The notes under the pieces were generated by a model that did not search any database, was not told the DNA's origin, and saw only the letters and a list, made by a program, of their open reading frames with translations. 64,000 nt of DNA from IMG/VR virus record IMGVR_UViG_3300032293_000813, positions 87,000 to 150,999 of that record; one strand, given 5' to 3'. Below are positions 8,861 through 55,857 of this stretch, piece after piece. Made by a program: the position numbers and the translations under genes. The stretch's first letter is position 1. Each line of letters begins with the position of its first letter. The stretch is from a virus (taxonomy: Duplodnaviria > Heunggongvirae > Uroviricota > Caudoviricetes).

Positions 8861-8966
8861 TAGTACATAGTAAAGGTACTAAATCGGTATCATATATCCA
8901 AGCATTTAATCAATTATTTTTAGGAAAATTGAAATATTTTTCATTGGCTATCAATGAGTTATGTAA
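8861..8966 (-). promoter_or_regulatory. intergenic promoter cassette, copy 1 (blocks A/B/C)
   Basis: Plus-strand tacatagtaaaggtac (A), catatatccaagcatttaatcaattattttt (B) and ctatcaatgagttatgtaa (C), 15 nt upstream of the minus-strand start codon. Confidence 0.55.
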
Positions 8967-9006
8967 TAAAAAACCCCTAATATGTAAAACATTAGAGGTC
9001 AATTAC

Positions 9007-9786
9007 TTACATAAGGAACTCAATTTCCCTACTAACAAAATCATAGTTGAATTTGATAGGGTCTTGAATTGCTTCATACCTTAAATTACAAGTACTACCA
9101 TTAAAGGTATAGATATCACCCCATTCATCTTTATAAGGTATAGTTCCCCACCCATATCCTTCGTGAATGTGTCCGGAAAAGTGTAAATGAGGCTTAACTT
9201 CGTGCAATCTATGATACAAATCAGCACATCCTACATTTTCGTTTGTATTAGATGTTCTATCATTATATCCGTAAATAGGAGAGTGAGTAATTACTATATC
9301 GGTATCCAATGGTATTTGATTCCATATTTGAGCCGCGTCATACCCTCTATCTACATTAAATCCCCATCCATATCCGAATGTAGGTGAATAGGGTGAACCC
9401 CATATATTCAATCCTTCTATCTTAACTGAGGTATTTTCTAAATAGTAAACTCCGTTTGGTAGATTGTTTAGAGTATCCTCTAACCATTGAGGTTTACCTT
9501 CCGAACACGATGTATCATAATCGTTTATACCCCTACCTTCGAAGTGTGCCAACTTATTCCTCAATAGTATTTCCCTATCAAATGACATATCGTGATTACC
9601 TGCTATGAATATTTTATGCGTGTAATCTTGCTTACCAAACCATTTGATAAAATCAGTTACCTCATGCTTCCTACCCAAAGATGTAATATCACCACTATGA
9701 ATAAGAATATGCCCACCTGGTAATTTACCATTAAGTTGATTATGCTTATTATGGGTGTCCGATATTGTAGTAATATTATATTTCAT
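9007..9786 (-). CDS. calcineurin-like metallophosphoesterase
   Basis: HSGDITSLG, GNHD and GHIHEGYG motifs. Confidence 0.8.
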   Translation of the reverse strand: MKYNITTISDTHNKHNQLNGKLPGGHILIHSGDITSLGRKHEVTDFIKWFGKQDYTHKIFIAGNHDMSFDREILLRNKLAHFEGRGINDYDTSCSEGKPQWLEDTLNNLPNGVYYLENTSVKIEGLNIWGSPYSPTFGYGWGFNVDRGYDAAQIWNQIPLDTDIVITHSPIYGYNDRTSNTNENVGCADLYHRLHEVKPHLHFSGHIHEGYGWGTIPYKDEWGDIYTFNGSTCNLRYEAIQDPIKFNYDFVSREIEFLM

Positions 9787-9812
9787 AACTCAAATATACG
9801 AAAAAAAACTGA

Positions 9813-10496
9813 TTAAACCAAATATTGTATATTATGTTTCATAGTTTCATACTGAACATTGAAAAGAAGTGCAAACCTATTAACATCCTCCTTCACCTCG
9901 CTGACCATATGAAACGGGTCTGATTCGCCACTAAAATTAAGGAATAATATATCAGCAAAGGTTGGAACTATTTCTTCATCTTCAACTACAAATAATCCCC
10001 CATATTCTTTCTTGTATTCTTTGTTCAAATATATCAATATATTAGCAGGTTTCCTGTGAGGGAATTCTTCATACCCATCTGGTTTACCATCTCTATGACC
10101 ATTTAATCCACCTCCTTTAATATAGAGTGTTAATAATGGCTTTCCTATAAATAATGTGTGTCTTTTTTGACATTCGTTTTTGAATAATTCAAATGATTTA
10201 TTCAATATCCAATTATGTAGTTTTGGGTAATCACTCCATTCTAATTCTCCACCATTTAAACACAGTTGACCTATTATGGAATCAGGCATAGATTCATATC
10301 TCTCCGCAATCATATTCATAAAAGATTTAGCTTTATCATGTGATTCATGCACCTCCATCATCCCGAACTCACCTGGACCTCTATGAATTGTTTTAGTGTA
10401 TTTTTGCAAATCAGTTGATATCTGATATATCTTATCTAATTCTTCTTTTAAATGATTTATATCATATAAGTTCTCTTTGTAGTATGCACCTTCCAT
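9813..10496 (-). CDS. putative 2OG-Fe(II) oxygenase-like protein
   Basis: NGHRDG (HxD) ... FHMVSEV ... NRFAL arrangement; weak. Confidence 0.35.
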   Translation of the reverse strand: MEGAYYKENLYDINHLKEELDKIYQISTDLQKYTKTIHRGPGEFGMMEVHESHDKAKSFMNMIAERYESMPDSIIGQLCLNGGELEWSDYPKLHNWILNKSFELFKNECQKRHTLFIGKPLLTLYIKGGGLNGHRDGKPDGYEEFPHRKPANILIYLNKEYKKEYGGLFVVEDEEIVPTFADILFLNFSGESDPFHMVSEVKEDVNRFALLFNVQYETMKHNIQYLV

Positions 10497-10552
10497 AATT
10501 TTGTATTTATGTTATAATTATACATATAATCGTTTTATTAAAATGTTTTGAT

Positions 10553-11515
10553 ATGAAAAAAACCTTCACTATAGATTTCGGTAAATTTGATGAGAATCGA
10601 TTAGTTTCCGAATATTCATTAGATTTCGAAGTACAAGAAAATCCCATAGCCGAATTGTGGTATGATATGTTAAATGGTTTATTGAAAGATGAAACATGGA
10701 AACTAGAAACCCGTTGGGGAGCATTTAAACTACCAACTCGTCATCCTAAGATATTAGTAGATAAACTAAAAAGATGTGTAGAAACGATTAACAACTCTGA
10801 TTGGTTTGAATATCATATTATCGAATCTGATATGATTACGGAAGATTATCCAATGGAGGTTCATAATATTATTCACCATCATTTCGAAACACTAATTGGA
10901 CAAGTGTGGAGGCCATCGGAATATTGGAATAGAATATGTGAAAGACAAGATTGGGCTCTTATAAATGCAGTTAGAGGATTGAATGACCTTTCACATGAAA
11001 TCGAAGAGTGGAATATGAGAGGAGATGCTACAATCTATACTACTTTTATGAATGGCGTTTCTCCAATACAAAAAGTAGAACTCCCAAAAGAAGCGGATGA
11101 ATGGTTTACATTGGATGGTGCATTTGGTAGAGGTTATTTACACTATGCACAATTAGGTAAGACGTGGCAAGAAGTGTGTATCGATGATGATGACCAAATA
11201 GAACCAGGTAATATTTCCGAACACCGTTTACTTAGTGGAGAGTTTGATTTACAATTCTCTTTATTTGATAGAACTCACGAAGGTATGATTGAATCTTTTG
11301 GTATGAGAGATAAACTCGCTAAATTTGAAAAAACACCTGAAGATAAAAGTCTGAGATTAGGATATTGTCCTGTATTTGATATAAAGGGACAGGATAAGTT
11401 TAGTACGTTAGATAAAGAAAATATAATTGATGGGGTTAGAAATCATCCCCAAATCATACGAATGAAAATAGAAAATACGGGTCGAGCATTTACTCCATAC
11501 TACGACCCATACTAA
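10553..11515 (+). CDS. hypothetical protein (only plus-strand gene in the first 56 kb)
   Basis: 320-aa ORF in the intergenic space between minus-strand genes. Confidence 0.5.
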   Translation: MKKTFTIDFGKFDENRLVSEYSLDFEVQENPIAELWYDMLNGLLKDETWKLETRWGAFKLPTRHPKILVDKLKRCVETINNSDWFEYHIIESDMITEDYPMEVHNIIHHHFETLIGQVWRPSEYWNRICERQDWALINAVRGLNDLSHEIEEWNMRGDATIYTTFMNGVSPIQKVELPKEADEWFTLDGAFGRGYLHYAQLGKTWQEVCIDDDDQIEPGNISEHRLLSGEFDLQFSLFDRTHEGMIESFGMRDKLAKFEKTPEDKSLRLGYCPVFDIKGQDKFSTLDKENIIDGVRNHPQIIRMKIENTGRAFTPYYDPY

Positions 11516-12179
11516 TTAACTTTTCCGCTAAAACTTTATTACCTTCTTCTGAAAGATGTAAATCTTCTTTTGAGTAAGTTAAGTTATTTTTCTTAGCCCA
11601 ATTAAGACAAGATAATTCATTCCCAAATCTAATAAAATTAATTTTGTTAAACATAGGAGTGGATTTGTACCAGGTATCAAAGTATATGAATATTATTTTA
11701 GAACCCATCTTTTCTACACTACTTTGAATATTATATAAAGAATAGAGTAATTTGTTATACTCATAATCATCATTATACATATACGTCTGATAATCTCTAA
11801 ATAATTGTATTTTCTTTTCGTAAAATTCAATAGATGAGTAATCATTCTTATCAAACATAATTTTAAAATTAGAAACAACTTCATTTCCTATATCAGGATT
11901 GATTAAATTCTGTAATGATATTAAGTTTCTAAATTTAGAATCATAATAAGAATATCTGGTTAAGAATGTAGGTTGAAATAAAATTAGTGAATTCTTTAAT
12001 TCATATTGGTGGTATCTCTTATTGAATTCATGTATAATAGATTCATTTGAATTACCAGGAATAGAATGATTCTGATACTGAACTCCATAATCGTTTGCTA
12101 CTAAATCAACAAATCCTTTGGTAAAATCCTGTCTCCAACAGGAAAAAGAACAACCAAAGGATATAATGCTATTTATCAT
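11490..12179 (-). CDS. SGNH/GDSL-hydrolase-like paralog 1 (GCS variant)
   Basis: N-terminal ISFGCSFSCW resembles SGNH block I and matches three other paralogs in the window. Confidence 0.4.
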   Translation of the reverse strand: MINSIISFGCSFSCWRQDFTKGFVDLVANDYGVQYQNHSIPGNSNESIIHEFNKRYHQYELKNSLILFQPTFLTRYSYYDSKFRNLISLQNLINPDIGNEVVSNFKIMFDKNDYSSIEFYEKKIQLFRDYQTYMYNDDYEYNKLLYSLYNIQSSVEKMGSKIIFIYFDTWYKSTPMFNKINFIRFGNELSCLNWAKKNNLTYSKEDLHLSEEGNKVLAEKLISMGRSME

Positions 12180-12188
12180 AATTAATAT

Positions 12189-12557
12189 TGGTGGAGGTGG
12201 AGGGAGTCGAACCCTCGTCCAAATACGGATTTAATAAACCTCATTCACAAGCTTAGTTAGTTTTTCTTAACTAACAAAATAGATAAAGATTTATACATTC
12301 GTTATCATTAATGTTCCAATTCGATTTCGGGTTCAATTGGTCTCCACCTGAGTTCACATTCTATTTTAAGTCCCACGATGTGTGCGGGAGGGATTAGGCT
12401 GCTATAGCGTAATCAGCACCAACGAATGCCATAGCATCTTCGAAGGTCATTGTAGATAATTCTACGTCGTTTATTGTTCGATAGGTATTTAAGGATTTCC
12501 ATCTAACCCTGCTTGCAACTTACCAACTCATCGTACCTGTCAAAACCAGGCACCCCC
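12189..12557 (-). ncRNA. ssrA: tmRNA (SsrA), one-piece, ~369 nt
   Basis: The 5' end GGGGGUGCCUGGUUUUGACAGG resembles E. coli GGGGCUGAUUCUGGAUUCGACGGG. The 3' end GGACGAGGGUUCGACUCCCUCCACCUCCACCA resembles E. coli GGACGCGGGUUCAACUCCCGCCAGCUCCACCA; the acceptor stem pairs GGGGGUG with CACCUCC. An internal tag frame ends ...GGU GCU GAU UAC GCU AUA GCA GCC UAA (GADYAIAA*). Confidence 0.8.
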
Positions 12558-14173: not shown

Positions 14174-15202
14174 TTATTCTCTAATTGTATCCAACGTTAC
14201 ACAATGAGGCCCACCACTAAAGGTTCTAGCATGTCTCATACGGACGGGTATAGAATCTACCCCATACTTCTTTAATTCTTTCATAAGAGGTATCTGTCGT
14301 TCCTCTACTATCATCGTATTCTCATCATAAGAAAGAGTGTTCATTCCCAACCAGGGTGATGCTTCTGCCCAATGTTCTAAACAATTTGTTTCCACCATCT
14401 CAGGAGAGTATATAACCTCCCACGATTGAAAGATTTTAGGTAGGTTGGTATGATTTACCCTTTTAGGATTAACTAAGACCAGTCCCTCTCTAATGAGTAC
14501 AAAAGTGGTATCTATATGGATGAATGCATATACATCTTCTATAGGATGTACATTATACTTTTCTTTCATATTTTCATCCAACCATTTTTGAAGATATTCG
14601 GCTCCTGCTCTGTTGCCGGTATTAGATATTAGGAATAGAATATCGTTATTACACTTAAGAATATTAGCCGCATCAAATACAGGCTCATCATTTCTTAATG
14701 TAGGGCCTGGTAACAATCCCCTATCATATATCGAATCTAATAATTTTGGTTTAGGAAAATCTACCCAATGTGATTCATCGAATAGATGTTTAAATGCTCT
14801 CGTTTCATTTTGTCGTTGGCGGAGAGCCATAGGAGTAGCAATAACTTTATCTTCTATAACTAACATAGAATCTCTAGGGCAGTATCCGTAGTAACCATCT
14901 ACTTCCCAATTTTCAGTTGAATAGGTTTCACTCCAATCGATTAAAGCAGGCCTGTGAACTTTAACACCTAACCCTTCTAATGTTTTACTTAAATTGTTTA
15001 GGTCTTCCGTAGTTTCTTCAATCATCCAATTAGGATAAGTTCCATATGGTATCTTACGAAATTGGTCATCTGTGTAATTAGCGTAATCAATCGTATGTAA
15101 TGATTTATCTCTTATAGTAGGAATCTGAGCAAATTCAGGTCTTCCTACGATTATCTCTTTTAGTTTCCCCCACTCATTTCTTATATAAGGTTTAATCTTC
15201 AT
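14174..15202 (-). CDS. L-arginine:glycine amidinotransferase (AGAT/CyrA/SxtG family)
   Basis: Collinear with human AGAT: [20 protein letters not shown] vs [29 protein letters not shown]...CPRDSMLVI...[36 protein letters not shown]; C-terminal catalytic SGGPHCVT vs GGGFHCWT. Confidence 0.85.
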   Translation of the reverse strand: [342 protein letters not shown]

Positions 15203-20395: not shown

Positions 20396-21643
20396 CTATA
20401 TTAATTCTTTTATTGAAACTTTTTTATTTTTCTTAAAAATCATCTGATAGTTGTAAACAAAAAAAGTTAATTCAGTTTCCTCTACTTCTTTTAAATCAAA
20501 TATTTTTAATAATTCAGCATTCGTTTTTGGTATAATATTATTATTATCGTCTAATATTAATTTTAATTTTTCTGGTATTGGCATTTCATATGATGCTTTC
20601 CAAAACGGAGTATCAAATCTTTCAGCTAAATAGTGATATCTAACGAACATCATGTTTTGCTCATTGATACTAGAGCAGGTATCATTAAATCTATCTCTAA
20701 GTGATACATCAAACTTAGCACTTATTAATCTCTTTAGTTGCATTATAGTTGACATCAATGAGGTAGCTTCCAACGGTTCTATGAATCCATATGATAGCCC
20801 AATTGCAACACTATTACCTATCCAACTTCTTTTATGTGTACCTGGCTTAAAATCAAATACTTTTTGTATAGTAATTTCTTTACCTATGTAATCTTCCACT
20901 TCTTTCTTAGCTTCTTCAACCGTAATAAATTCTGAATTAAATGTATATCCACATCCCCATCTATGTTGCAATGGTATCTGCCACATCCAACCTGAATCCA
21001 TTGAAATCATATTAGTGTGGGTTACATCTCCTATTGCATATTGATTTTCTTGTGGTAAAAAATATGCCATAGCTCTATTCAATAAAAGATATTTAGAATA
21101 ATCAATCCATTCATCATTGTGAACCTTACCTATAATAACTCTAGCAAAACCACTGCAATCAAATACAAAATCTATACCCTTAATATCAATTCCTTCCTTA
21201 AGTGAAATGGAATGGATATCCTCACCTGTTTTATCTACCACATCGACCTCACCTTCAATCCACTTAACACCTCTTGATAATGATACTTCTTTTAAGTATT
21301 CCGCTACCATTCTTGCATCAAAATGATATGCGTAATTTTGTTTAAACGCATTTGGTTTCGGTCCTGTAAAAAGATGCGATGAACTTTTCCCATCACCTGT
21401 CCAATTTGATAGTGTTAACCCTAATTTACTTGTGCAACCTGTTCTTTTAAAAAAATCATTTTGGTTTATTTCCAATAAAGATAAAAACGCACCAAAGTTA
21501 GGAGTAGCTCCTTCTCCTGCTCCTAATATTCCTATCTTAGAACTTTCTATTAAAGTAACAGATGCATCTTTCCAAAATTTATTAACAGATAGGGCGGTTA
21601 GCCACCCCGCAGTTCCGCCTCCAATAACAATTACATTTTTCAT
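20396..21643 (-). CDS. flavin-dependent halogenase (tryptophan-halogenase family)
   Basis: N-terminal VIVIGGGTAGW FAD motif plus WMWQIP (WxWxIP) motif. Confidence 0.7.
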   Translation of the reverse strand: MKNVIVIGGGTAGWLTALSVNKFWKDASVTLIESSKIGILGAGEGATPNFGAFLSLLEINQNDFFKRTGCTSKLGLTLSNWTGDGKSSSHLFTGPKPNAFKQNYAYHFDARMVAEYLKEVSLSRGVKWIEGEVDVVDKTGEDIHSISLKEGIDIKGIDFVFDCSGFARVIIGKVHNDEWIDYSKYLLLNRAMAYFLPQENQYAIGDVTHTNMISMDSGWMWQIPLQHRWGCGYTFNSEFITVEEAKKEVEDYIGKEITIQKVFDFKPGTHKRSWIGNSVAIGLSYGFIEPLEATSLMSTIMQLKRLISAKFDVSLRDRFNDTCSSINEQNMMFVRYHYLAERFDTPFWKASYEMPIPEKLKLILDDNNNIIPKTNAELLKIFDLKEVEETELTFFVYNYQMIFKKNKKVSIKELI

Positions 21644-23843: not shown

Positions 23844-24961
23844 TTGTATATATATTTTACTATTTTATTACTTTGATTACGTTGTAAAATGCTGTATTCC
23901 ATAACATTGTGCATATACTCTTTCAGATACGTTCGTTGTACATCATTATACCATTCGATATCATTATTTAGTATAGTTTCCAAATGATTCATAAATTCTT
24001 CTCCTTCTCCAAAAAAATATATAGGAGAGTTAAATGTAAATCCCATCTTTTCTAATGCATACTTAACTTCTTTTTTTCCATAATATACAAAAGGATTTCC
24101 GGATTTTAGAGCCTTGTGTATCTTCTCAGATAGGTATAATCCATTCATTTTTAATAGATGATGAGTCTCCGTTATTATTTCAAAAAAGGATTCAAAATAT
24201 ATTCTATAATTCATAGGAACTGTACCAATATGATTAATACCTAATATTTTCTTTTTCTGTTGTTCTACTTCACTAATCTTAGATAATCCAGGATATGTAT
24301 CATAGTACATAGGATATTTAATGCCATGCGCTTCACATTCTTTTAAAAACCATTCCTCTGATTCTATGCCGAAGTGTGCTTCATTAAAATCTATTAAATT
24401 AAAAGATATATTACCTTCCGATTGTTTATTATTTTTATGAATTAATTTAAGTATATCAAATCTAATAGGAGAGAAGTGATTGTTAAGAAACATAAATTTT
24501 TTCTTTATTGTCCCCAAATCTGCACGCTTAATTATATCTAATGCATGTACGAATTCCGTTTCACAATTTTCCGTTACCCATTGATTGGGGTTATAAAAAA
24601 TAAAATCATCTTTACCTAAATAATTTATATCATTAGTTAACCAAATTAAGCGTTTGTTATGAAGAAGGGTTTTGTAAAAATTTATAATATTATTTGTAAT
24701 CTTACTTTCTTCTATAGCAAAGTTTATCACAAATCTTATTTCAGAATTAAAATCATATACAGATTCTATATTATCTCTTAGCCTATTAACCCATATTTGA
24801 TTAGTATAATCAAACGAATCCATAGACTTACTGATTTCTATTAATTTTACGTTTTTGTCAAATGCAGTATTGGTGCTAAATCCTCTTGGTAAATAAAATA
24901 CCAATCCACCATCTCTGATTTCAGATTCTCCGTTATTAAATATGTGTAAAGCTCGTAACAT
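23840..24961 (-). CDS. hypothetical protein
   Basis: 373-aa ORF between the APS kinase and an SGNH paralog. Confidence 0.45.
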   Translation of the reverse strand: MLRALHIFNNGESEIRDGGLVFYLPRGFSTNTAFDKNVKLIEISKSMDSFDYTNQIWVNRLRDNIESVYDFNSEIRFVINFAIEESKITNNIINFYKTLLHNKRLIWLTNDINYLGKDDFIFYNPNQWVTENCETEFVHALDIIKRADLGTIKKKFMFLNNHFSPIRFDILKLIHKNNKQSEGNISFNLIDFNEAHFGIESEEWFLKECEAHGIKYPMYYDTYPGLSKISEVEQQKKKILGINHIGTVPMNYRIYFESFFEIITETHHLLKMNGLYLSEKIHKALKSGNPFVYYGKKEVKYALEKMGFTFNSPIYFFGEGEEFMNHLETILNNDIEWYNDVQRTYLKEYMHNVMEYSILQRNQSNKIVKYIYK

Positions 24962-25839
24962 TATATTATTCCTTTTTCTATCATATTTAAAATAGATTCT
25001 CCAAAATATTCATGTCCTTCTAAACTATAGTGTAAGTTTTCAATACCTACATCTTTTAATGTATAAGTGTTCTCTTCTATACGTTTGGTATCATTCATAG
25101 GCAATACATTATTAAGTATCTTATCATATCCAAACTCCATACTATTTGCCATTCGATGTGCGATAGAGTAAGAATCAAACCTATTCATTTGCATTAATTG
25201 ATTATATGCCATTAGATTATTTAAGTTTTCATATTGAACTAAATAATCAGTCATTACAAAATTGGTGAAGTATGAAAAGAATGTATGAAATTTTTCCGAA
25301 TCAACTGGTATATCATTGTGCTTAAGCCAATCCTCTACTATATTAACCTGATTCATACCTGGATTAAGAGAATGTACTAAAGCCTTATAAGTCATATCCG
25401 CTCTATATGAACCACTCCATTGTGTTATACATAGAGGATTCTTATAATTTTTTAAAAGTGATTTATCGTACTTCTTAAAAATTCTTTTATTAGGTTCTAA
25501 AAATACCCAATTATCTTCTCCAACTTTATAATCGTATATGAAATAAGGATTAACTTTGGGTTCAATGCCTGATAGATAATACCATCTACGCAGAATAGAT
25601 TTATTAGATGAACCACTCTTAGATATATTTAAAAGTGGAACACCTAATAATTCTGCTATTCTTAATCCCCAACTAAAAGACCTGTCTAAGAATACCTCAT
25701 TATTAGAATGGTTTTTTAATTCCAACCAATAATCGTAATACTTACATTCTTCTTTGTATGTATCAAATTGCCTATATAACCCATTACCTTCGGAAAACGA
25801 ATCTCCGTTAATAATTACTAAATCATAATTCATGTTCAA
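24961..25839 (-). CDS. SGNH/GDSL hydrolase paralog 2
   Basis: N-terminal VIINGDSFSEGNGL (GDS block I). Confidence 0.55.
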   Translation of the reverse strand: MNMNYDLVIINGDSFSEGNGLYRQFDTYKEECKYYDYWLELKNHSNNEVFLDRSFSWGLRIAELLGVPLLNISKSGSSNKSILRRWYYLSGIEPKVNPYFIYDYKVGEDNWVFLEPNKRIFKKYDKSLLKNYKNPLCITQWSGSYRADMTYKALVHSLNPGMNQVNIVEDWLKHNDIPVDSEKFHTFFSYFTNFVMTDYLVQYENLNNLMAYNQLMQMNRFDSYSIAHRMANSMEFGYDKILNNVLPMNDTKRIEENTYTLKDVGIENLHYSLEGHEYFGESILNMIEKGII

Positions 25840-26251
25840 AATTTATCTTAACCCACTTCTCTCTACTATCTAATTCAAAAGAAGCTATATATTTTTGTTT
25901 CCACGCATTTGGTGGTATAAGAGAAAGAAAAACAGATTCATCTTCCCTCATATAAAGATGATACTTCTCACCCATTACAGGTTGAAAATTGAATTGAGCG
26001 GTATAAACTAACTCATTCCAATTGTATTCATCAATTAGGTTTTGTGCTTCTGCTTTTATTTCTTCGTAGCGAGATTTAAAGTGATGGTTAACTCTAACTA
26101 CCCCTCTCGATTTCCATCCAGAAACATCCTCTAATTTAATAGCGGGAGCTCCGTGATTACTACCATAAGTTAATTCTCTCTGATAGTAACCACGTTCTTC
26201 ATCCCATACTATTAAATCCGGTTTATCCTTTTTCTTTTTTTTCAATGTCAT
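25823..26251 (-). CDS. hypothetical protein
   Basis: ORF tiling. Confidence 0.4.
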   Translation of the reverse strand: MTLKKKKKDKPDLIVWDEERGYYQRELTYGSNHGAPAIKLEDVSGWKSRGVVRVNHHFKSRYEEIKAEAQNLIDEYNWNELVYTAQFNFQPVMGEKYHLYMREDESVFLSLIPPNAWKQKYIASFELDSREKWVKINFEHEL

Positions 26252-26660
26252 ACTTTAAAAGACAGGATAAATGGTCAACTCCTACTAAATAATCGGATTC
26301 AACTTCAAAAGTATTCTCACCACAATAAGAACATTTCCAACCATCAGTTTCTTTAACTTCGGCTTCATAACTTCCACCCATATCATGTAAGGTTTCAGTT
26401 TTGAATTGTTTCTTAGTGATTACTTCTCTTTTCTTTTCACCAATCTTCCTTCTATATATAGTACCACCATTATCAGGTGATTCATATATAAAAGTTTCAT
26501 TACCATCTAATAATAATTGTTTTTCTATAAAAGAAGCAACATCTTCTTCTTTGGTAATCTTTCCAATAGCATCTATAATATCAAATAAAGATTTATCTGT
26601 TTTTAAATGTAATACAGAGAGTTCACCACTTTTTTCAATTGTAATCTTAATTTCTTCCAT
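26223..26660 (-). CDS. hypothetical protein with CxxC...H..C element
   Basis: ORF tiling. Confidence 0.4.
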   Translation of the reverse strand: MEEIKITIEKSGELSVLHLKTDKSLFDIIDAIGKITKEEDVASFIEKQLLLDGNETFIYESPDNGGTIYRRKIGEKKREVITKKQFKTETLHDMGGSYEAEVKETDGWKCSYCGENTFEVESDYLVGVDHLSCLLKYDIEKKEKG

Positions 26661-26664
26661 TTTT

Positions 26665-27516
26665 TTATTCGGTTTCTACAAAGGTATAAAAACTTTTTGA
26701 ATTTTCCAAATCTGGTTGTGTTTTACTTTCACCTAATCTTATTTCTTCTTCCAAATCATATCTTTCCAATAATCTCTTTACGATACCACTCCTTACGCAA
26801 TCCTCTTTTGAGAACTCTACTTGATATACACCCTCTACCCCCATAAAACGATTCCATATATCATAGAACCCACTCTTTTGATATGCAGGTACTCCATTAG
26901 CTCTAAATTTATCACATTGGGAAAGGTCTCCACATATTACCATCTTACTATCATCTGATATACGCGTTACGAGTGTTTTTAACTGAGCTGGAGAGGCGTT
27001 CTGCGACTCGTCCATAAAGATGTATGTATTGTTAAAGTTCATCCCTCTAAGGAAGTTTAAAACCTTAAATTCTAACTTACCCAACTCAATCAAACGAGTG
27101 GTTTCTTTTTCTCCTATAATTTTGTGAAGTATTCCTATTGAGGATTCGTTGTGATAAGCTATCTTCTCCATCAAATCACCAGGAAGGTGACCTAACTTAT
27201 CTTCGTTACCAACATCGACCGTTGGATTTATAATAACCATTTTATATATTCCGCTATTTCTTTGGTATAATAACTCTATACCTTTTTGTATTCCGATGAA
27301 TGTTTTACCTGCCCCTGCCAATGCATGAGCCATAACTATATTATTTTTGTGTGATTCGATTGCCTTATACAATCTCTTTTGGTTTCTTGTTTTAAATTCT
27401 ATTGGTGTTATTAATTTCGGTATCCCTCCTACTTTGTTTTCTACAATTTCTCCAATTGTGTTTGTAACTTCAGTTTCTCCAACTTTCTTTGTAATCCTTT
27501 TAGATACTTTACCCAT
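26665..27516 (-). CDS. phoH: PhoH-like ATPase
   Basis: Walker A GAGKTF; GHLPGDLMEKI; IFMDESQN; VICGDLSQCD. Confidence 0.85.
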   Translation of the reverse strand: MGKVSKRITKKVGETEVTNTIGEIVENKVGGIPKLITPIEFKTRNQKRLYKAIESHKNNIVMAHALAGAGKTFIGIQKGIELLYQRNSGIYKMVIINPTVDVGNEDKLGHLPGDLMEKIAYHNESSIGILHKIIGEKETTRLIELGKLEFKVLNFLRGMNFNNTYIFMDESQNASPAQLKTLVTRISDDSKMVICGDLSQCDKFRANGVPAYQKSGFYDIWNRFMGVEGVYQVEFSKEDCVRSGIVKRLLERYDLEEEIRLGESKTQPDLENSKSFYTFVETE

Positions 27517-27549
27517 AAATTTAATGTTAGGTTATTGCTCTCTCATAAC

Positions 27550-27921: not shown

Positions 27922-27977
27922 ATCGATTGGGTTTATATCAATAAGTATTAAAAACTTTTTTTACTAACCATTTTTTA

Positions 27978-30857: not shown

Positions 30858-30859
30858 TA

Positions 30860-35880: not shown

Positions 35881-35896
35881 AAACGATTTCTTTAGA

Positions 35897-36631: not shown

Positions 36632-37219
36632 TTAAATTAATTGTAAAGCCTTACTGATAGTACTTTCTGAATAACCATATCCCTTAGCTTTCTCAATCGC
36701 TTTCTCCACCGATAACACTCCAAACACATACTCACCGGCGATTAAACCTTTGATGGTTTTGATTGCCGAAGGCCAACTTCCGTGAGGAGCTTTGTTTTCA
36801 ACATGTAAATACTTTGTACCGAAATCCAACTTAGTACCATTATCCGATTTGCCAGGCTCACCATACTCATATGATTCACTCCAACCATCGTAACGTCCAC
36901 CACACATTTGTCTAATGAATGAATTGATTTCTTTCCACTCTTTAGATTCTACATCCATATCAGAACCATCGGGATTACATACATAAACACTAGCCGAATT
37001 ACCATTTGCGAAAGTTTCAGATGAACCCCATACTAATAAGTGTGGGTACTTAGCTTTCATAAATTGTTTAGCTATTACGGGACACTCTTTACGTCCGATA
37101 GAGATATATGGGTTGTCTAATTTCTTTCCCCAATAATCGGTAGTTCTTAAACACTCAGCGGGTAGTTCAAAATTCATACCACACCATTCGAATTTCATTT
37201 TGTTTTTGTTAGTTTTCAT
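36632..37219 (-). CDS. hypothetical protein
   Basis: ORF tiling; promoter cassette upstream. Confidence 0.4.
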   Translation of the reverse strand: MKTNKNKMKFEWCGMNFELPAECLRTTDYWGKKLDNPYISIGRKECPVIAKQFMKAKYPHLLVWGSSETFANGNSASVYVCNPDGSDMDVESKEWKEINSFIRQMCGGRYDGWSESYEYGEPGKSDNGTKLDFGTKYLHVENKAPHGSWPSAIKTIKGLIAGEYVFGVLSVEKAIEKAKGYGYSESTISKALQLI

Positions 37220-37228
37220 ATCTTTTAT

Positions 37229-37315
37229 CTTTTATTACATAGTAAATATACAAATAATTGCTGAGACCACCAAGCTTTTTAGTGGGTTTTTTCAATTATT
37301 TTTTGAAATAATGTT
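37229..37315 (-). promoter_or_regulatory. intergenic promoter cassette copy (blocks A/B)
   Basis: ttacatagtaaatatacaaa ... ccaccaagcttttt...caattatttttt. Confidence 0.45.
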
Positions 37316-37410
37316 GGTAGATTGTCTTACCGAACACATATCCAATAATGGAAACTCCACTAAGGATGATAAACTCTAAAACTGAAATTGATTCGTTGTA
37401 CATATCTTAT

Positions 37411-37508
37411 CTTTTGTTACATAGTAAAGATACGAAAAAGGCGGGAACTGGCAAGCTTTTACCCAATTATTTTTAAAAATTCTTGATTGAGTATCAATGA
37501 GTTATGTA
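37411..37508 (-). promoter_or_regulatory. intergenic promoter cassette copy (blocks A/B/C, near-consensus)
   Basis: cttttgttacatagtaaagatacgaaaaag / ggcaagcttttacccaattattttt / cttgattgagtatcaatgagttatgta. Confidence 0.55.
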
Positions 37509-37531
37509 TATAGAAAATACATATATGTATA

Positions 37532-38899
37532 TCACTCATTATTAGATATATAGAAAAATGTAGGATACTTAGGAGATACTATTTTTTGACGAATCCTCTC
37601 ACTGGATAAACCGAAATAATCTGCCGCTTCTTTGAGTGAGTAAAATTGTATTCCATTACATTCTATGATAGGTATTTCACATCGTATATCACAATCTTTT
37701 AAACTATTTTCATTTTCATCATAGCTTACATCGGTTACAGGTGTAGCTAATTTAATCCAATGAGAATATATTTGAGAATTAGAAGATATTCTATTTCGTA
37801 TCTCGGATTCATCCAACCCAACATATTTTGCAATATGAACCGCTGATTCAAACAGATACCCATCTATACTATATTTTAAAATTGGTTTAGTTTCCTTTCC
37901 TATTATTTGCCAATCTTTGTATTTTATTTTATGAGAAAGGCATCGTCTTTCTACTTCAGATGCTACTAACTCATTTGGATTAAGTGAGATTGCTACTTCT
38001 CTGAATGATTTGTATTGTTTCCCATCAACCACACATTTGTAAGTCCCATCCCATTCAATATCCTCTGTTGCTAAATCGGGGTTTCCTTTTACGAATACTA
38101 ATACGTTTTGGTGAACCGATGCTACCTTACGATTGCGATTGAAATATGTATCCACAACTCTTCCGGCTTGATGTTGTGCGTTAAACAAAATCATATCGTT
38201 ATAGAAATTTAACCCAGCTTTCTCGCACGCTTGTATAGTTTTGTTTACTAACCCTCTATACTTTCCTATTTTATAATCTCCGGTCTTTGATACCTCTCTT
38301 ACTTCGGATACAACTACTATAAAAAATCTATTGTTCTTTAACTTTTGTGCCGATTTATCTAATATACGAAAATAAGTTTCATCAAATTCACTATCATCCA
38401 TATTTGATAAATCTCTATCGGAATCCGAATATTTTTCTAAACTATAATAAGGTGGACAAGTAAATACCAAATCATACTCTCCAGTTATTTCCGTATTGAT
38501 TGTATCTAATACTTCATCACTATCACCCACCATCCAATTTGGTTTGGTTGATTGCTTTTGGTTTTCTTCTATTTGTAATTTGGAAAGGTCTATTCCATCG
38601 TATTGATATCCCATTTCAGTTGCCACAATACCCCTAACACTCCCACCAGCAAATGGGTCTAATATCATTCCACCTTTAGGTGTGAACCATTGATACATAT
38701 GCTCACAAAGGGTTGCATCGAATATTGAAACAGATATTTCATCAGTATCCCAAAATTTACTTTTTGATACAGTATCTTCTCTACCGAGCTCAGATGTAAT
38801 ATTGTAAGTTTTAATCCAATACCGTTTACGGTCTTGCCATTCTTTAGTTCTTGTATCTAATATGGAGAATGGTTTTATCATATAAATGTAAAGATACAA
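37532..38899 (-). CDS. DNA amino-methyltransferase with C-terminal NUMOD1-like DNA-binding repeats
   Basis: Motif I DPFAGGSVRG then motif IV VFTCPPYY. Two C-terminal repeats I(D/N)G..F.S...A.Y.GL.ES.IR..I. Confidence 0.7.
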   Translation of the reverse strand: MYLYIYMIKPFSILDTRTKEWQDRKRYWIKTYNITSELGREDTVSKSKFWDTDEISVSIFDATLCEHMYQWFTPKGGMILDPFAGGSVRGIVATEMGYQYDGIDLSKLQIEENQKQSTKPNWMVGDSDEVLDTINTEITGEYDLVFTCPPYYSLEKYSDSDRDLSNMDDSEFDETYFRILDKSAQKLKNNRFFIVVVSEVREVSKTGDYKIGKYRGLVNKTIQACEKAGLNFYNDMILFNAQHQAGRVVDTYFNRNRKVASVHQNVLVFVKGNPDLATEDIEWDGTYKCVVDGKQYKSFREVAISLNPNELVASEVERRCLSHKIKYKDWQIIGKETKPILKYSIDGYLFESAVHIAKYVGLDESEIRNRISSNSQIYSHWIKLATPVTDVSYDENENSLKDCDIRCEIPIIECNGIQFYSLKEAADYFGLSSERIRQKIVSPKYPTFFYISNNE

Positions 38900-38951
38900 A
38901 AAAAGTTTGGAATTTCCAAACTTTCTTACAATTATATTTTATATTAATTGA

Positions 38952-39890
38952 TTAAAAATCCAATTCGGTGTCAGTATCTAAATTCATTACATACTTTTCT
39001 TCTATATCGGATAGATTTCTTCTGAATCCTTTCAAAGTTTCAGTTCCTTTTTTTAATTGAGTTAATAACGCTTCTTTTTTATTCAAATCCTTTTCTGTAA
39101 AGTATTTCTGTGATAATTCTTTTTGTGCATCTTCTAATTCTCTAACTTTTTTAGAAACGGCTAAAAACTTAACATACATCTTATTTATACCAACTTCGTT
39201 TACGGATTCGCCAAACTCACCTCTACCATCTTTTTCTGCTGCTCTCATTGCACCACCACTATTTCTCATTTCAGGAGAGGAGTTTTTAAGATATCGAATA
39301 ACTTCAATTTGTTTTGCTAATAAAACTTTATATAATTTAACATATTCTTCTTTAGAAACTAACTCATTTTTTAATAAGAATAATATAAGTGCCGGTTGTT
39401 TACCTCTAGTCTTTACATCAGATTGAGTAGTACCATTTAATTTAGCTAAATCATTTGCACTTCTTACTCTATATTCATGTTTATTACCTACTATCTTAGT
39501 TACAGGAGTTTGTGCATAAGCCATAGCTAACTCTAAAATTTCAGTAGGTGTCATATTTTTATCGGTATATTGTTTTTTACCTAAATCATATGTGGCTTCG
39601 TTTACCGATTCTTTTATAGGATTCATCTTCTCATCCGATACCCAATATGCAGTACCGCCACCGATTGAATGTTGGAACATCTTTTCCATTTTCTCAGCGT
39701 ATTTCTTAGCATCATTATATGAATTAAATACTTTTGGTTTATCGGTTGAACTAAATGATTTTTGGTCAAATTCCTTTTCCAACCCCTTACCCTGTCCCCT
39801 ACCTCTATTGTAGGTTACATAGTATTTCCTTTCGTTTAATGCATCTTTTAATCTCATAGGTATAAATATTAATTTATTTTGGTTTCCCAT
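38952..39890 (-). CDS. hypothetical protein
   Basis: ORF tiling. Confidence 0.4.
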   Translation of the reverse strand: MGNQNKLIFIPMRLKDALNERKYYVTYNRGRGQGKGLEKEFDQKSFSSTDKPKVFNSYNDAKKYAEKMEKMFQHSIGGGTAYWVSDEKMNPIKESVNEATYDLGKKQYTDKNMTPTEILELAMAYAQTPVTKIVGNKHEYRVRSANDLAKLNGTTQSDVKTRGKQPALILFLLKNELVSKEEYVKLYKVLLAKQIEVIRYLKNSSPEMRNSGGAMRAAEKDGRGEFGESVNEVGINKMYVKFLAVSKKVRELEDAQKELSQKYFTEKDLNKKEALLTQLKKGTETLKGFRRNLSDIEEKYVMNLDTDTELDF

Positions 39891-48187: not shown

Positions 48188-48526
48188 TTATTTCCATAAA
48201 ATTTGAATTCCTAATATTGTTGCCGCTAATAATAAACAGATTAATGTTTTAGTAGTTAGTGGTTCTTTAAACATTAACATACTCAATGTTACAAATACAA
48301 CTATACCAATCCCAAACCCAATCAATCGTGAAGGCCATAGTTGTCCATCGAAGTGATTAACAAACCCTTCAACCGATTTAATATAAAACCATCCGGCAGG
48401 AATAGAACTTAACAGAATTATAATTGGATATTTCTCATACCAACCAAATTTTACACTACCCTGCAATTGTAGGAAAGAAAATATCTGACCTAACACTCCG
48501 AAGAAAAACCCTTTTAATAAATCCAT
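48188..48526 (-). CDS. membrane protein (3 TM)
   Basis: Hydrophobic ORF; degenerate promoter motif gtaaagatacgaaaaaaaa upstream (48531-48550). Confidence 0.4.
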   Translation of the reverse strand: MDLLKGFFFGVLGQIFSFLQLQGSVKFGWYEKYPIIILLSSIPAGWFYIKSVEGFVNHFDGQLWPSRLIGFGIGIVVFVTLSMLMFKEPLTTKTLICLLLAATILGIQILWK

Positions 48527-48565
48527 AGTTTGTAAAGATACGAAAAAAAATTGATATTAACAAAT

Positions 48566-49482: not shown

Positions 49483-49683
49483 TTATTCGTTTATAAATTT
49501 ACCATCCACAAAACATATATTGGTATCATCTTCCAATAGGATGTTATAATACCCATCGTTGAAATTGGTCAAACATACATCCAACCATTCAAAGTTGATG
49601 TTATTCTCTTCCAACCACTTATCAAATGTAACAGCATCCATTCCGTTACTATTAGCTTTCTTAAGAATTTCTGAAGTTTTCAT
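49483..49683 (-). CDS. hypothetical small protein
   Basis: ORF tiling. Confidence 0.35.
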   Translation of the reverse strand: MKTSEILKKANSNGMDAVTFDKWLEENNINFEWLDVCLTNFNDGYYNILLEDDTNICFVDGKFINE

Positions 49684-49796
49684 ATTACTTAATGTTTAAA
49701 AGGTTACGGAAATAATTTGAAAGGATTTCAAATAATGAAGGTTCTTCCATCATTATCACATCAACATAGGCTTTAATACATCTACTCATTTTGTTT

Positions 49797-49897
49797 ATCT
49801 TTTGTTACATAGTAAAGATACGAAAAAGCGTGGAACTAGCAAGCATTTAACCAATTATTTTAAAAAAAGTTTATTGAGAATCAATGAGTTATAAGTC
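49797..49897 (-). promoter_or_regulatory. intergenic promoter cassette copy (blocks A/B/C, near-consensus)
   Basis: tttgttacatagtaaagatacgaaaaag / ctagcaagcatttaaccaattatttt / ttattgagaatcaatgagttataag. Confidence 0.55.
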
Positions 49898-49909
49898 GTT
49901 GATAACCAA

Positions 49910-53127: not shown

Positions 53128-53445
53128 TTATCGTTTATCTTTGAAGTATCTTTTAATTACTGAGTATAATTGGTATCGGAACTCTTCAGCTCCTCTTTTT
53201 AAGTTACTATAACTGAGGGTATGTTGTACATATACTCCATCTACTTTAATCTGCAATGAACCATTCTGATTAGGTTCTTTAATTAAGTGAACCTTTATAA
53301 CCTCACCCCAACCTCCAATTACATATTCGAATTCGTAAGCCCCTTCCCAATTAATAGATGTTACACAATGTGCCAATACTGAACCATCGGATTTAACTAT
53401 ATCTCCTTTTATCTTATCGTGTCCGTTTATGTTGATATACTTCAT
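53128..53445 (-). CDS. hypothetical protein in paralog array (MKYININGHD)
   Basis: Weak motif similarity. Confidence 0.35.
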   Translation of the reverse strand: MKYININGHDKIKGDIVKSDGSVLAHCVTSINWEGAYEFEYVIGGWGEVIKVHLIKEPNQNGSLQIKVDGVYVQHTLSYSNLKRGAEEFRYQLYSVIKRYFKDKR

Positions 53446-53712
53446 TCTATTGATTGATTACCGAAGATACAAAAAATGCCCCATATAACCAAATTTTTTT
53501 TAGTGAAATTTTCCCATTGGTGGGTTTATATATATTTTTTCTCACGGAGGTAAAAGTCATCCCAAATATGCAAGTGTACCCCTGCCACCTCTAAGCCATT
53601 CATAATCAACGAGTTACATAGAACCTAAAGGGATATGGTGGCCTCCTCTCACGCTACAGTGCATAAAATGTGGATAACTTGTCTACAATTGTGAATTCGT
53701 TTCTCACCCTAT

Positions 53713-54055: not shown

Positions 54056-54197
54056 AGGTTAGGGTTATATAGAGGAGTACTGTCTCCCCAAAGTTTAACC
54101 TCTTCCCCATAGCCTTCAATTGTCTATGTGTGGACCGAATTGGGAAAAAAAGTAAAATCCACCATACCCATAGGGCGATTAAAAAGTTACTACTCAT
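53994..54197 (-). CDS. small membrane protein
   Basis: Hydrophobic ORF; overlaps the previous ORF so one of the starts is uncertain. Confidence 0.3.
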   Translation of the reverse strand: MSSNFLIALWVWWILLFFPIRSTHRQLKAMGKRLNFGETVLLYITLTFAIPRYYYLWAKEVLGGNKK

Positions 54198-54200
54198 ATC

Positions 54201-54641
54201 TTATTTGTTATTAATGAATGCTTTACAGCTATGGAACTTAGTGTTCATAGCCTTCCATATATTCCAATCAATCATCTTAGGGAAAGCCCCATGCATATCA
54301 CCTACTGTCAAACTCTCTAATAGGTTCTTCTCTATACTATGCCATTTACCACCCTTAGTAGTTAGAATGTGAAACCAATAAGATTTTCCTCCAATCATTC
54401 TCTCCATCTCTACTACAGTGGTGTTCTTACTTAGGTAGTATGGCAAGTTCTCTATTGTACACTCTACATCACCAATGACGGGGAAGCCGGCTCTTGCCTT
54501 AGCAGTATATCTGAATCGGTACTCTGTTCCCAACTCTGTTAGATTACTTACTCCCACTCGGTTACCATTAATGTTGATAGTACCATAGAATACATTTCCA
54601 CCCATTGAATCTGTGTTAATTTTAATTAAAGGATTGTTCAT
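54201..54641 (-). CDS. hypothetical protein (N-terminus ..LIKINTD..)
   Basis: ORF tiling. Confidence 0.4.
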   Translation of the reverse strand: MNNPLIKINTDSMGGNVFYGTININGNRVGVSNLTELGTEYRFRYTAKARAGFPVIGDVECTIENLPYYLSKNTTVVEMERMIGGKSYWFHILTTKGGKWHSIEKNLLESLTVGDMHGAFPKMIDWNIWKAMNTKFHSCKAFINNK

Positions 54642-54774
54642 ATTATGAAGGTTTATTTACGATTTCAGTACGAGGTAGGGGTTCGATTTCAATTGGGGTA
54701 ACCCTCATTCTACACTCGTGACCGGTGTACATAAGGAAGGTAATAAGGGAAACCAATTGTATCTTTCTCAAACT

Positions 54775-54830
54775 CATATAGTAAAGGTAGGGCTTTCAGC
54801 TCATATATCCAAGCATTTCCCCAACTATTT
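54775..54830 (-). promoter_or_regulatory. partial promoter cassette (blocks A'/B)
   Basis: atagtaaaggtagg...catatatccaagcatttccccaactattttt. Confidence 0.4.
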
Positions 54831-54841
54831 TTAAACTATTT

Positions 54842-55108: not shown

Positions 55109-55119
55109 ATTAAAGGGGT

Positions 55120-55359
55120 TTATTTGTTTTTAAAAATTGATTCAATAGAGGTAGGAGAGTAATCAGGTAGCTTTAACCAATTAACTAAGTCACATACGGT
55201 GGTGTAACGTAAATTCGTCCAATTGGTTACCTCTCTCATTTCCGTTAACATACTACCAATGGTGTTTGGGAAAGAAGGTTCGGTGCTTAGTAGATACTCC
55301 AAATGATTTGAATTCAGTCGGTAGTATAGGGAATGTGGGTTGTATTTCATATCTCTCAT
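55120..55359 (-). CDS. hypothetical small protein
   Basis: ORF tiling. Confidence 0.35.
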   Translation of the reverse strand: MRDMKYNPHSLYYRLNSNHLEYLLSTEPSFPNTIGSMLTEMREVTNWTNLRYTTVCDLVNWLKLPDYSPTSIESIFKNK

Positions 55360-55364
55360 TGTTT

Positions 55365-55466
55365 ATATAATAAAGATAGGTAATAGGGACCATATATCCA
55401 AGCATTTACCGAATTATTTTCTGTTTCCGTGAAAATAATCTGTCTGAGTATCAACGACTTATAACG
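55365..55466 (-). promoter_or_regulatory. promoter cassette copy (blocks A'/B/C)
   Basis: ataaagataggtaa / catatatccaagcatttaccgaattatttt / gagtatcaacgacttataac. Confidence 0.5.
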
Positions 55467-55483
55467 GATTGGCTGATAGAGGG

Positions 55484-55732
55484 TTAGTAACTTATCTCAA
55501 TAGGTGAACCATTGTATGAGTAACCACATCTGTATCCATAATCAGGTAGGGTGATGTGGTATATACCTTCGTTTAGATTCGTAGGGGATACTACCAATGG
55601 CTCGATTCGGATGCCGGCTAGTTCACAATACGCTTCGAACTCAGTAGGTTTCATACCAGGTCCACCTTCGACAATTTCACATAGGTTCATTAGGGATTTA
55701 ATACGGCTCATAGTAGCGGGGCTAATATTCAT
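55484..55732 (-). CDS. hypothetical small protein
   Basis: Last minus-strand gene before the strand switch. Confidence 0.35.
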   Translation of the reverse strand: MNISPATMSRIKSLMNLCEIVEGGPGMKPTEFEAYCELAGIRIEPLVVSPTNLNEGIYHITLPDYGYRCGYSYNGSPIEISY

Positions 55733-55775
55733 AGGGTTAGGGGTTAAGGGGTTTAAATTTTTTTTCTCTCTCTCA

Positions 55776-55857
55776 TTACTTAGTAAACATACGAATAAGG
55801 ATTGATATACACAAATTTATTTGAAATTAATCTCCCTCAGTATCAACGAGTTATAAG
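55776..55857 (-). promoter_or_regulatory. diverged promoter cassette copy (blocks A''/C)
   Basis: ttacttagtaaacatacgaataagg ... cagtatcaacgagttataagg. Confidence 0.4.

Follow-up and report, generated by a model that had tools for sequence, protein, structure and literature searches.

A family of intergenic repeats was found in the stretch of DNA analysed here, positions 87,000 to 150,999 of the IMG/VR virus record IMGVR_UViG_3300032293_000813 (Caudoviricetes; 64,000 nt, hereafter the window). The repeated unit, referred to as the cassette, consists of up to three blocks that read C, B and A on the coding strand. The reading that we favour, with a probability of about 0.65, is that the host RNA polymerase recognises the cassette as a promoter, and that the cassette is portable, carries block C as an optional module and doubles as a recombination point. 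According to this reading, built from the nucleotide sequence, it would be the regulatory unit of a large uncultivated phage of lytic type, whose host would have transcription and translation of the Bacteroidota type.

Blocks B and A would together form a very strong promoter, served by the host polymerase with its primary sigma factor. An A-tract at -54 to -45 would act as an UP element, followed by an extended -33 region, (A)TGCTTGGATATAT, a spacer of 19-20 nt ending in TTTTCG, the -7 box TAyCTTTA and the initiation region CTATGTAA; transcription would start 4 nt past the -7 box, and the mRNA would either be leaderless or begin with a short A-rich leader that lacks a Shine-Dalgarno sequence. 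Block C would most likely be a site for a DNA-bending architectural protein (HU/IHF type), bound on a single helical face (centres at -62, -72 and -83), and would thereby boost or modulate the promoter. The cassettes may also act as points of homologous crossover, because about 70-100 bp are common to the copies, and small gene modules would be gained, lost and reshuffled there, as occurs at the promoter-early stem-loops (PeSLs) of T4-type phages.

Repeat family and copy number

The cassette repeat family is real. When up to three mismatches were allowed, blocks C, B and A were matched three, five and two times, respectively, against 0.00 expected in shuffled sequences, and the block-A core TAAAGATACGAAAA was matched 17 times (2.4 expected). 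The nine copies listed by a first-pass annotation of the window were all found in their places, and one more was detected on the plus strand (~56157-56289), giving 10 long copies. That annotation described three blocks common to all nine, which was correct for the copies at 8861, 35314, 37411, 49797, 55365 and 55776; those at 34083, 37229 and 54775 have blocks B and A only.

On the coding strand the consensus order was block C, about 20 nt, AAAAATAATTGG..AAATGCTTGGATATAT, about 13 nt, TAyCTTTACTATGTAAy, an A-rich leader and ATG. Identity between copies reached 0.88 over positions -60 to +12 and was at background (~0.57) in both flanks. Each copy was oriented with the gene downstream and ended at the start codon of that gene, although the distance of 15-25 nt once given between block A and the start codon did not hold, since 4 to ~50 nt separate the -7 box from ATG. 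The TTG-N19 spacing that had been reported was seen in the copies at 37411 and 49797, whereas in most copies TTG is separated by 20 nt from TA in the -7 box. About 15 shorter promoters had the common geometry TTG-N19/20-TAnnTTT(A/G). Among the shorter copies previously placed before other genes, those now located at 6392, 14138, 36583, 38889, 48533 and 63467 fit TTG-N20-TAnnTTTR, and the one at 53455 is degenerate (TATCTTCG). The products of the cassette-driven genes (34-195 aa) have no assigned function, and searches of these genes against Pfam and PHROGs gave matches only to families of unknown function.

The copies and promoters are listed below by position in the window; dyad positions are given relative to the -7 box, and all start sites (+1) are predicted.

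8845-8962, minus strand: long copy c8861; block C 8944-8962 (dyad -83); -33 TTG 8899-8901; -7 box TACCTTTA 8871-8878; +1 ~8866; ATG 8845-8847 of a 115-aa gene (8500-8847)
~8966-9000: separate GC-rich terminator hairpin, predicted, upstream of c8861
34048-34145, minus strand: long copy c34083; blocks B and A, no block C; -33 TTG 34121-34123; -7 box TATATTTA 34093-34100; +1 ~34088; ATG 34048-34050 of a 124-aa gene
35300-35442, minus strand: long copy c35314; block C 35399-35417 (dyad -83) and 35424-35442 (-108), including the palindrome TCAACCAGTTATAACTCGTTGA at 35406-35427; -33 TTG 35354-35356; -7 box TATCTTTA 35326-35333; +1 ~35321; ATG 35300-35302 of a 119-aa gene
37217-37295, minus strand: long copy c37229; blocks B and A only; -33 TTG 37271-37273; -7 box TATATTTA 37243-37250; +1 ~37238; ATG 37217-37219 of a 195-aa gene
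37401-37505, minus strand: long copy c37411; block C 37487-37505 (dyad -72); -33 TTG 37452-37454; 19-nt spacer; -7 box TATCTTTA 37425-37432; +1 ~37420; ATG 37401-37403 of a 35-aa open reading frame (ORF)
49787-49902, minus strand: long copy c49797; block C 49874-49892 (dyad -71); palindrome TCAATGAGTTATAAGTCGTTGA 49881-49902; -33 TTG 49840-49842; 19-nt spacer; -7 box 49813-49820; +1 ~49808; ATG 49787-49789 of a 34-aa ORF, then gene 49483-49683
54775-54835, minus strand: long copy c54775; blocks B and A only; -33 TTG 54810-54812; -7 box TACCTTTA 54782-54789; +1 54777, the A of ATG 54775-54777, so that the 44-aa ORF would be leaderless; left edge of a 589-bp module missing from the related contig L150
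55357-55462, minus strand: long copy c55365; block C 55444-55462 (dyad -83); -33 TTG 55399-55401; -7 box TATCTTTA 55371-55378; +1 ~55366; ATG 55357-55359 of a 79-aa gene; right edge of the module missing from L150
55730-55879, minus strand: long copy c55776; block C 55836-55854 (dyad -62) and 55861-55879 (-87); -33 TTG 55812-55814; -7 box TATGTTTA 55784-55791; +1 ~55779; first long ORF (82 aa) with ATG 55730-55732
56157-56289, plus strand: tenth long copy; block-C-like ATAATCAATCAGTTA 56157-56171; A-tract and -33 region 56215-56239; -7 box TATCTTTA 56260-56267; +1 ~56272; ATG 56287-56289; heads genes 56287-57108, the only rightward genes of that region
53455-53620, minus strand: degenerate (relic) cassette, TTTGG-N-TATCTTCG, before gene 53128-53445; block C half-site TCAACGAGTTA at 53606-53616
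36583-36642, minus strand: short promoter TTGGTAGATTGAAATAATTTTCGTATCTTTA (36583-36613) and upstream A-tract; UP/-33 part duplicated around the insertion of a 203-aa gene in the related contigs L246 and L249
2922-63497, minus strand: other short promoters, TTG-N20-TAnnTTT(G/A), with -7 boxes at 2922, 4450, 6392, 7181, 9791, 14138, 16455, 26679, 31451, 38889, 48533, 55921 and 63467

Blocks B and A as a predicted Bacteroidota-type promoter

An alignment of 11 copies had TTG, TA..TTT and the A-tract as its invariant columns. The pattern TTG-N20-TAnnTTTR was matched 26 times in the window (4.4 +/- 2.3 in shuffled sequences), with 25 of the 26 sites co-oriented with the local genes; when spacers of 18-21 nt were allowed, 23 of 37 sites lay in non-coding DNA, which makes up 13.5% of the sequence. 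Promoters of the E. coli type (-35/-10) were not enriched in the window (20 vs 20.8 expected). In Flavobacterium johnsoniae promoters, T-12, A-11, T-8, T-7, T-6 and G-5 are nearly invariant, and transcription starts 4-5 nt past the box (PMC6847099). The first five of these bases were present throughout the 11-copy alignment and in all 26 TTG-N20-TAnnTTTR sites. At -5, A was found in 10 of 10 long cassettes, and the gene-linked promoters of this geometry in the window had either G (9/23) or A (14/23). The Bacteroidota sigma-A assignment made in the first-pass annotation is thus borne out by the TTG and TA..TTT columns, the spacing, the orientation and the position, but not by position -5 of the long cassettes. 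We regard blocks B and A as a predicted Bacteroidota sigma-A-type promoter in a phage-specific extended form, and we infer recognition by the host sigma factor, early timing and the position of the start site.

When the start-site rule of F. johnsoniae was applied, the predicted +1 fell on the A of ATG, or at most 1 nt from it, at three promoters (9786, 54777 and 63463), and 2-3 nt ahead of ATG at two others (48526 and 38881). This landing at start codons indirectly supports the promoter assignment and would imply leaderless mRNAs. Start codons 4-8 nt past the -7 box were observed at 9784-9798, 38879-38896, 48524-48540, 54775-54789 and 63461-63474, where leaderless or nearly leaderless mRNAs are predicted; in F. 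johnsoniae, leaders exceed 10 nt in 87% of the predicted transcripts. A second small sub-family was represented by the promoters at 6392-6422 and 36583-36613, which have a common extended variant, TTGGTAGATT..TTTCGTATCTTTACGAAGTAAAAA.AAAGG, and a leader of 60-100 nt.

A resemblance to the MotA box of T4 middle promoters had also been suggested, and was rejected on geometry. The MotA box is centred at -30, 12 +/- 1 bp from the -10 element, and replaces the -35 element (PMC2988021). The cassette has the string (A/T)(A/T)(A/T)TGCTT in common with T4 middle promoters and nothing else: its TGCTT lies at -38 to -34, 20 bp from the -7 box, and runs into a TTG of the -33 element that is retained.

An extended dialect restricted to phages

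The long cassettes had a dialect of their own: the A-tract spans -54 to -45, a strong GCTTGGATATAT lies around -33, the box TAyCTTTA has A at -5, and the predicted start site carries CTATGTAA. Two dialects, TTTG and TTTAC, stood side by side in the window. The composite motif GCTTGGATATAT-N12-14-TAnnTTTAYTAT was found at 35 loci in IMG/VR and was not matched in 596 Gb of cellular genomes (185,579 species); the extended promoter dialect is restricted to phages. The viral matches formed two groups, one of close and moderately close relatives with the whole cassette, and another ('group II') of many more distant phages that had only the core, without block C. In these distant phages the gene behind the motif was often homologous to a cassette-driven gene of the window. 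Positions that had been left free in the search were also conserved among 55 non-redundant copies from many phages (A-tract, TTGG, taTaTca, tttTtCg and gTAA), indicating that the extended features are under selection and are not merely recent copies.

Such a dialect could mean that the long cassettes are a temporal class dependent on a phage factor (an appropriator or activator like MotA/AsiA of T4, or a phage sigma factor) that reads GCTTGGATATAT and TAnnTTTA-CTATGTAA. Since A replaces the host G at -5, a phage factor or another sigma factor could indeed be needed. The occurrence of the extended motif in viral contigs and in none of the cellular species genomes points the same way, as do the coexistence of two dialects, which would be expected of temporal classes, and the conservation of the extended features in distant phages ahead of the same downstream genes. 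We nevertheless consider this explanation unlikely. The -33 TTG and the -7 TA..TTT stand at the canonical host spacing, the geometry of a MotA box is absent, and T4 early promoters also carry extra consensus positions, yet are read by the unmodified host polymerase (PMC2988021). Furthermore, no sigma factor, MotA or AsiA was among the matches listed (25 of 28 Pfam families for 101 ORFs of the window, which covers 64 kb of a genome that measures 99 kb or more). Host-read promoters therefore remain our preferred reading of the long cassettes.

No useful close relative was found among 50,697 phage records searched for cultured phages, by megablast with 16 kb of the window and by blastn with the cassettes. 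The sole match in these records was a 31-nt look-alike in the uncultured crAss-like phage cr108_1 (MT774385.1, 36263-36293; unannotated and intergenic), with 93.5% identity to the -33 to -7 segment of the 'group II' core. This promoter dialect may thus extend to crAss-like phages.

Block C as an independent palindromic module

Block C is a palindrome, TAA-N4-TTGAT-W-ATCAA-N4-TTA (27-mer ATAACTCATTGATAATCAATGAGTTAT), made up of one to three 12-mers TCAAYGAGTTAT in alternating orientation. Its half-site TCAAYGAGTTA was matched 15 times in the window (3.6 expected), and the full form found in other viral contigs, ATAACTCATTGAT-A-ATCAATGAGTTAT, was often arranged in tandem arrays. With respect to the -7 box, the dyad lay at -83 in three copies, at -71/-72 in two and at -62 in one, which corresponds to a single helical face, and positions were similar in close relatives. 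Block C had been described as a part of the cassette; it does stand upstream in six of the 10 long copies, but as an optional, independent palindromic unit and not as promoter proper, and it is also found across Bacteroidota genomes.

The exact 21-mer TTATAACTCRTTGATANTCAA was found at 93 loci in cellular genomes, 91 of them intergenic. About 80% of the loci belonged to Bacteroidota of several orders, and a few to the Planctomycetota-Verrucomicrobiota-Chlamydiota (PVC) group and other phyla; the genomes ranged from 28 to 68% GC, the flanks were unrelated, and the loci adjoined ordinary, unrelated genes. Genomic and viral copies alike had, in the half left free by the query, ATCAA, four uninformative bases and TTA, that is, WATCAA-N4-TTR. 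Block C is therefore independent of the cassette and widespread. The pattern matches the IHF-type consensus WATCAANNNNTTR, and a site for an architectural DNA-binding protein is the leading interpretation of block C. Classical HU/IHF proteins are encoded by Bacteroidota, and the element CTnDOT uses one of them as a host factor (PMC5499826). We tentatively propose that block C is the recognition site of an architectural protein conserved throughout Bacteroidota (e.g. a classical host factor of the HU/IHF type), and that phages have built near-consensus, helically phased copies of it into portable cassettes. If this were true, the window would provide the first sequence handle on the regulon of that factor, in hosts and phages.

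Several observations weigh against the favoured reading of the cassette and of block C within it. Four of the 10 long copies lack block C, as do all 'group II' phages, and more distant relatives have block C arrays 90-190 nt upstream with no fixed phase. Many of the phased positions belong to orthologous or duplicated copies, and could reflect descent and not selection. In cellular genomes block C showed no preferred distance to -7 boxes (the distribution was flat), and a role as a class-I-type activator site in hosts was accordingly not supported. The IHF-type consensus is Proteobacterial and may not fit the HU/IHF proteins of Bacteroidota, and no HU/IHF gene was detected within the window by a signature search. 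Finally, position -5, which in host promoters is almost always G (PMC6847099), is A in every long cassette.

Block C could also be thought of as the stem-loop or terminator half of a classical PeSL, stopping transcription from upstream, with its sequence kept by the copying of cassettes alone. It is palindromic and directly follows upstream stop codons (e.g. at 35428), and in other phages and genomes the full 27-nt palindrome sometimes precedes a T-run or follows a tRNA gene. The block C segments of the window, however, folded weakly (-4 to -7 kcal/mol), four of the six no better than shuffled sequences, and the predicted terminator at c8861 is another hairpin, GC-rich and followed by a U-run (-19.5 kcal/mol, z = -4.1). 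In genomic copies, complementarity is not maintained at the four bases that separate ATCAA from TTA, so the hairpin is not what is conserved, and copying within one phage does not explain an identical 21-mer in unrelated genomes of such different GC content. Block C as an intrinsic terminator in this phage was rejected on its weak folding, a GC-rich stem with a U-run being confined to the hairpin at ~8966-9000, and this explanation of block C as a whole appears improbable.

About as doubtful is that block C serves as the operator of a global regulator encoded by the phage, which would switch the cassette genes off or on jointly. KorB/ParB-type repressors of plasmid RK2 act in this manner, from palindromes at variable distances from many promoters. 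Palindromic units upstream of many promoters, at distances that vary in distant relatives, agree with this idea, and so do the clustering of half-sites in the divergent control region at 55.8-56.2 kb and a weak ParB-like match (E = 4e-4) in a 449-aa protein of the window. On the other hand, no candidate regulator was found in the window, and the same sequence lies beside ordinary genes across many Bacteroidota chromosomes, a spread that indicates a host factor rather than a phage factor.

One Microscillaceae metagenome-assembled genome (MAG) had the 21-mer on about 20 contigs. This multiplicity of block C in some bacterial genomes, together with the multi-copy, discrete nature of the unit, would suit selfish miniature mobile elements, similar to miniature inverted-repeat transposable elements or repetitive extragenic palindromes, that are intergenic by chance and have no regulatory role. 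We give this very little credence. All copies point in the direction of the gene that follows and end at its start codon, the conserved positions coincide exactly with the promoter boxes, and in distant phages the promoter type of homologous genes is retained; in addition, no terminal inverted repeats or target-site duplications were noticed on reading the copies, although no dedicated search was made.

Other candidate roles of block C were examined. As the end of a mobile element it was not supported, since 45 proteins flanking the genomic copies had no common family. As the centre of replicon origins it was rejected: no Rep gene was found beside the arrays of short tandem repeats, and the neighbours were an MFS (major facilitator superfamily) transporter, NrdD, a glyoxalase, an amylase and others. 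In Rfam searches the only match in the window was to a transfer-messenger RNA (tmRNA), and none overlapped block C in 15 genomic loci. A literature search by sequence string returned nothing relevant to blocks A or C.

In six contigs of gut Bacteroidales (L154, L207, L215, L219, L227 and L240) block C was the centre of a composite chromosomal element, in which three to five tandem 8-9-mers on one flank are matched by their reverse complements on the opposite flank; no Rep genes adjoined these elements. The short repeats varied by locus (GTTGGCACA, TGTGACAT, GGCAAAAT), whereas the centre was identical.

Further repeats were noted in the divergent control region of the window (55806-56232) and at 53667-53682 and 57161-57169. 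The control region has three direct repeats of about 22 nt, ATATSAGACGGTRTYACACAGY, at 56003, 56053 and 56082. A perfect 16-nt inverted pair, AATGTGGATAACTTGT / ACAAGTTATCCACATT, contains the DnaA-box sequence TTATCCACA, of which the window has three exact copies, all within 53.7-57.2 kb; block C also adjoins TTATCCACA in other phages (L075, L123 and L142). At one mismatch, DnaA boxes were not enriched in the window (33 vs 28.9). This region may be a replication origin or control region.

Recombination and reshuffling at the cassettes

Recombination junctions were observed within the cassettes, in line with the earlier suggestion that the copies, like PeSLs of T4, seed recombination; two indels were found, with crossovers inside the promoter. 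The contig L150 aligned to 54196-54831 of the window and then directly to 55365-55988, the two alignments overlapping in L150. In a three-way alignment, L150 had a single chimeric cassette, in which block C, block B and the -7 box matched c55365 and the sequence from CTATATGAG onward was that downstream of c54775, which places the crossover in the core formed by the -7 box and the initiation region. The window has two direct copies instead, c54775 and c55365, 589 bp apart and enclosing two ORFans. The other indel was seen in L246 and L249, where two copies of the 31-mer TTTAAAAAATAAACCAAAAAAGACTTGGTAG, the UP/-33 part of the promoter at 36583-36613, flank a 203-aa gene that has a -7 variant of its own.

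Reshuffling was also seen in more distant relatives (L046, L079 and L147), where homologues of cassette-headed genes stand in another order and are adjacent, each with its own block C array and promoter; in the window these genes are dispersed over 8-49 kb. Close relatives varied in this region by indels of small genes. A 28-nt segment (34528-34556) aligned twice in L246-L249, around a 70-aa ORF missing from the window; this is probably one more indel of a small gene, with a short direct repeat of intergenic DNA at its borders.

Genome context, relatives and type of host

The window has 32.8% GC, with almost all its genes on the minus strand and no structural genes. Its region 24943-36882 was 100% identical to part of a 99-kb metagenome scaffold from ENA, and several contigs of 22-122 kb were related at 88-97% identity. 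The accessory genes encode PhoH, UvdE, an SPFH protein, a tryptophan-halogenase-like protein, an amidinotransferase, a peptidyl-prolyl isomerase (PPIase), ClpS, Hsp20, four 2-oxoglutarate (2OG)-Fe(II) oxygenases, a deformylase-like protein, a DNA methylase with I-TevI/NUMOD DNA-binding modules, tmRNA and GroEL, a set typical of large environmental phages. Shine-Dalgarno-like 4-mers preceded 5% of the genes (9% in the background), and the leaders were A-rich at -13 to -11 and at -3; the translation signals are of the Bacteroidota type (cf. PMC6847099).

The tmRNA is full length (12189-12557, minus strand; Rfam RF00023, 105 bits, E = 4.8e-40), with an unusually long tag peptide ending in ...GADYAIAA according to the ARAGORN prediction, and its gene is kept in relatives such as L046. 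The C-terminal part of a GroEL/Cpn60 chaperonin (63538-64000, minus strand; Pfam PF00118, E = 5.5e-25) runs off the right end of the window, and the phage thus carries its own chaperonin. The gene at 37532-38881 (minus strand) encodes an N6/N4 DNA methyltransferase fused, according to Pfam, to I-TevI-type and NUMOD1 DNA-binding modules, and close relatives (L029, L246-L249) have other genes in place of 37508-39830.

A long run of overlapping genes with few promoters was noted at 14174-15202, 20396-21643 and in the operon at 17-31 kb. It includes genes for an amidinotransferase (39% identity to a Synechococcus phage gene), a tryptophan-halogenase-like flavoenzyme, a dTDP-sugar epimerase, an adenylyl-sulfate (APS) kinase and a sulfotransferase, which suggests a phage-borne pathway for the modification of small molecules or sugars.

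Comparison with known systems

Promoters of Bacteroidota-infecting phages are almost uncharacterised, and the transcription and translation signals of this phylum differ from the E. coli paradigm. The cassette resembles the Bacteroidota sigma-A (sigma-ABfr) promoters with TTTG/TAnnTTTG (PMC6847099, PMC2483708) in its TTG and TA..TTT at 19-21 nt, its position upstream of genes and its predicted starts 4-5 nt past the box. It departs from them at -5, which is A and not G in the long cassettes; its -33 region is much stronger, some 40 additional positions are conserved, and the full motif is not in cellular genomes. As a consensus for strong phage promoters of Bacteroidota it would be rich in information and could serve genetic tools.

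The early promoters of T4, with their 'uber' UP/-35/TGn/-10 arrangement, are thought to out-compete host promoters right after infection (Hinton 2010, PMC2988021). Like these, the cassette matches host sigma elements and adds extra conserved positions and UP-like A-tracts; it differs in the sigma factor and the boxes, and its -5 position departs from the host consensus.

With regard to block C, the comparison is with phage promoters assisted by IHF, such as lambda pL and Mu Pe. As in these, a WATCAA-N4-TTR site, here a predicted one, is located ~60-90 bp upstream of a strong phage promoter with an UP-like tract and is phased by whole helical turns, but block C is symmetric, with two half-sites around TTGAT-W-ATCAA, and often occurs in arrays. 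As a conserved intergenic palindrome common to phages and host chromosomes, it allows its binding factor to be sought directly.

The closest parallel is with the PeSLs of T4-type myoviruses (Arbiol et al. 2010, PMC2839356; Comeau et al. 2014, PMC4122927). Both are composite units of about 100 bp repeated in the intergenic DNA of an accessory, ORFan-rich region; both join an AT-rich tract and a strong host-type promoter, ending at the start of a small gene, to a palindromic element upstream; and in both, similarity is limited to the unit, with indels and reshuffling among related phages and crossovers inside the unit. The phage cassette differs from PeSLs in its Bacteroidota -33/-7 grammar and its lack of a Shine-Dalgarno sequence, and, in place of a GC-rich terminator hairpin, block C is an AT-rich, weakly folding palindrome that is conserved in sequence and is also found in chromosomes of the host phylum. 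By analogy, the cassette is the functional counterpart of T4-type PeSLs in a Bacteroidota phage, which would mean that modular shuffling through regulatory cassettes is not peculiar to the T4-type phages of Proteobacteria.

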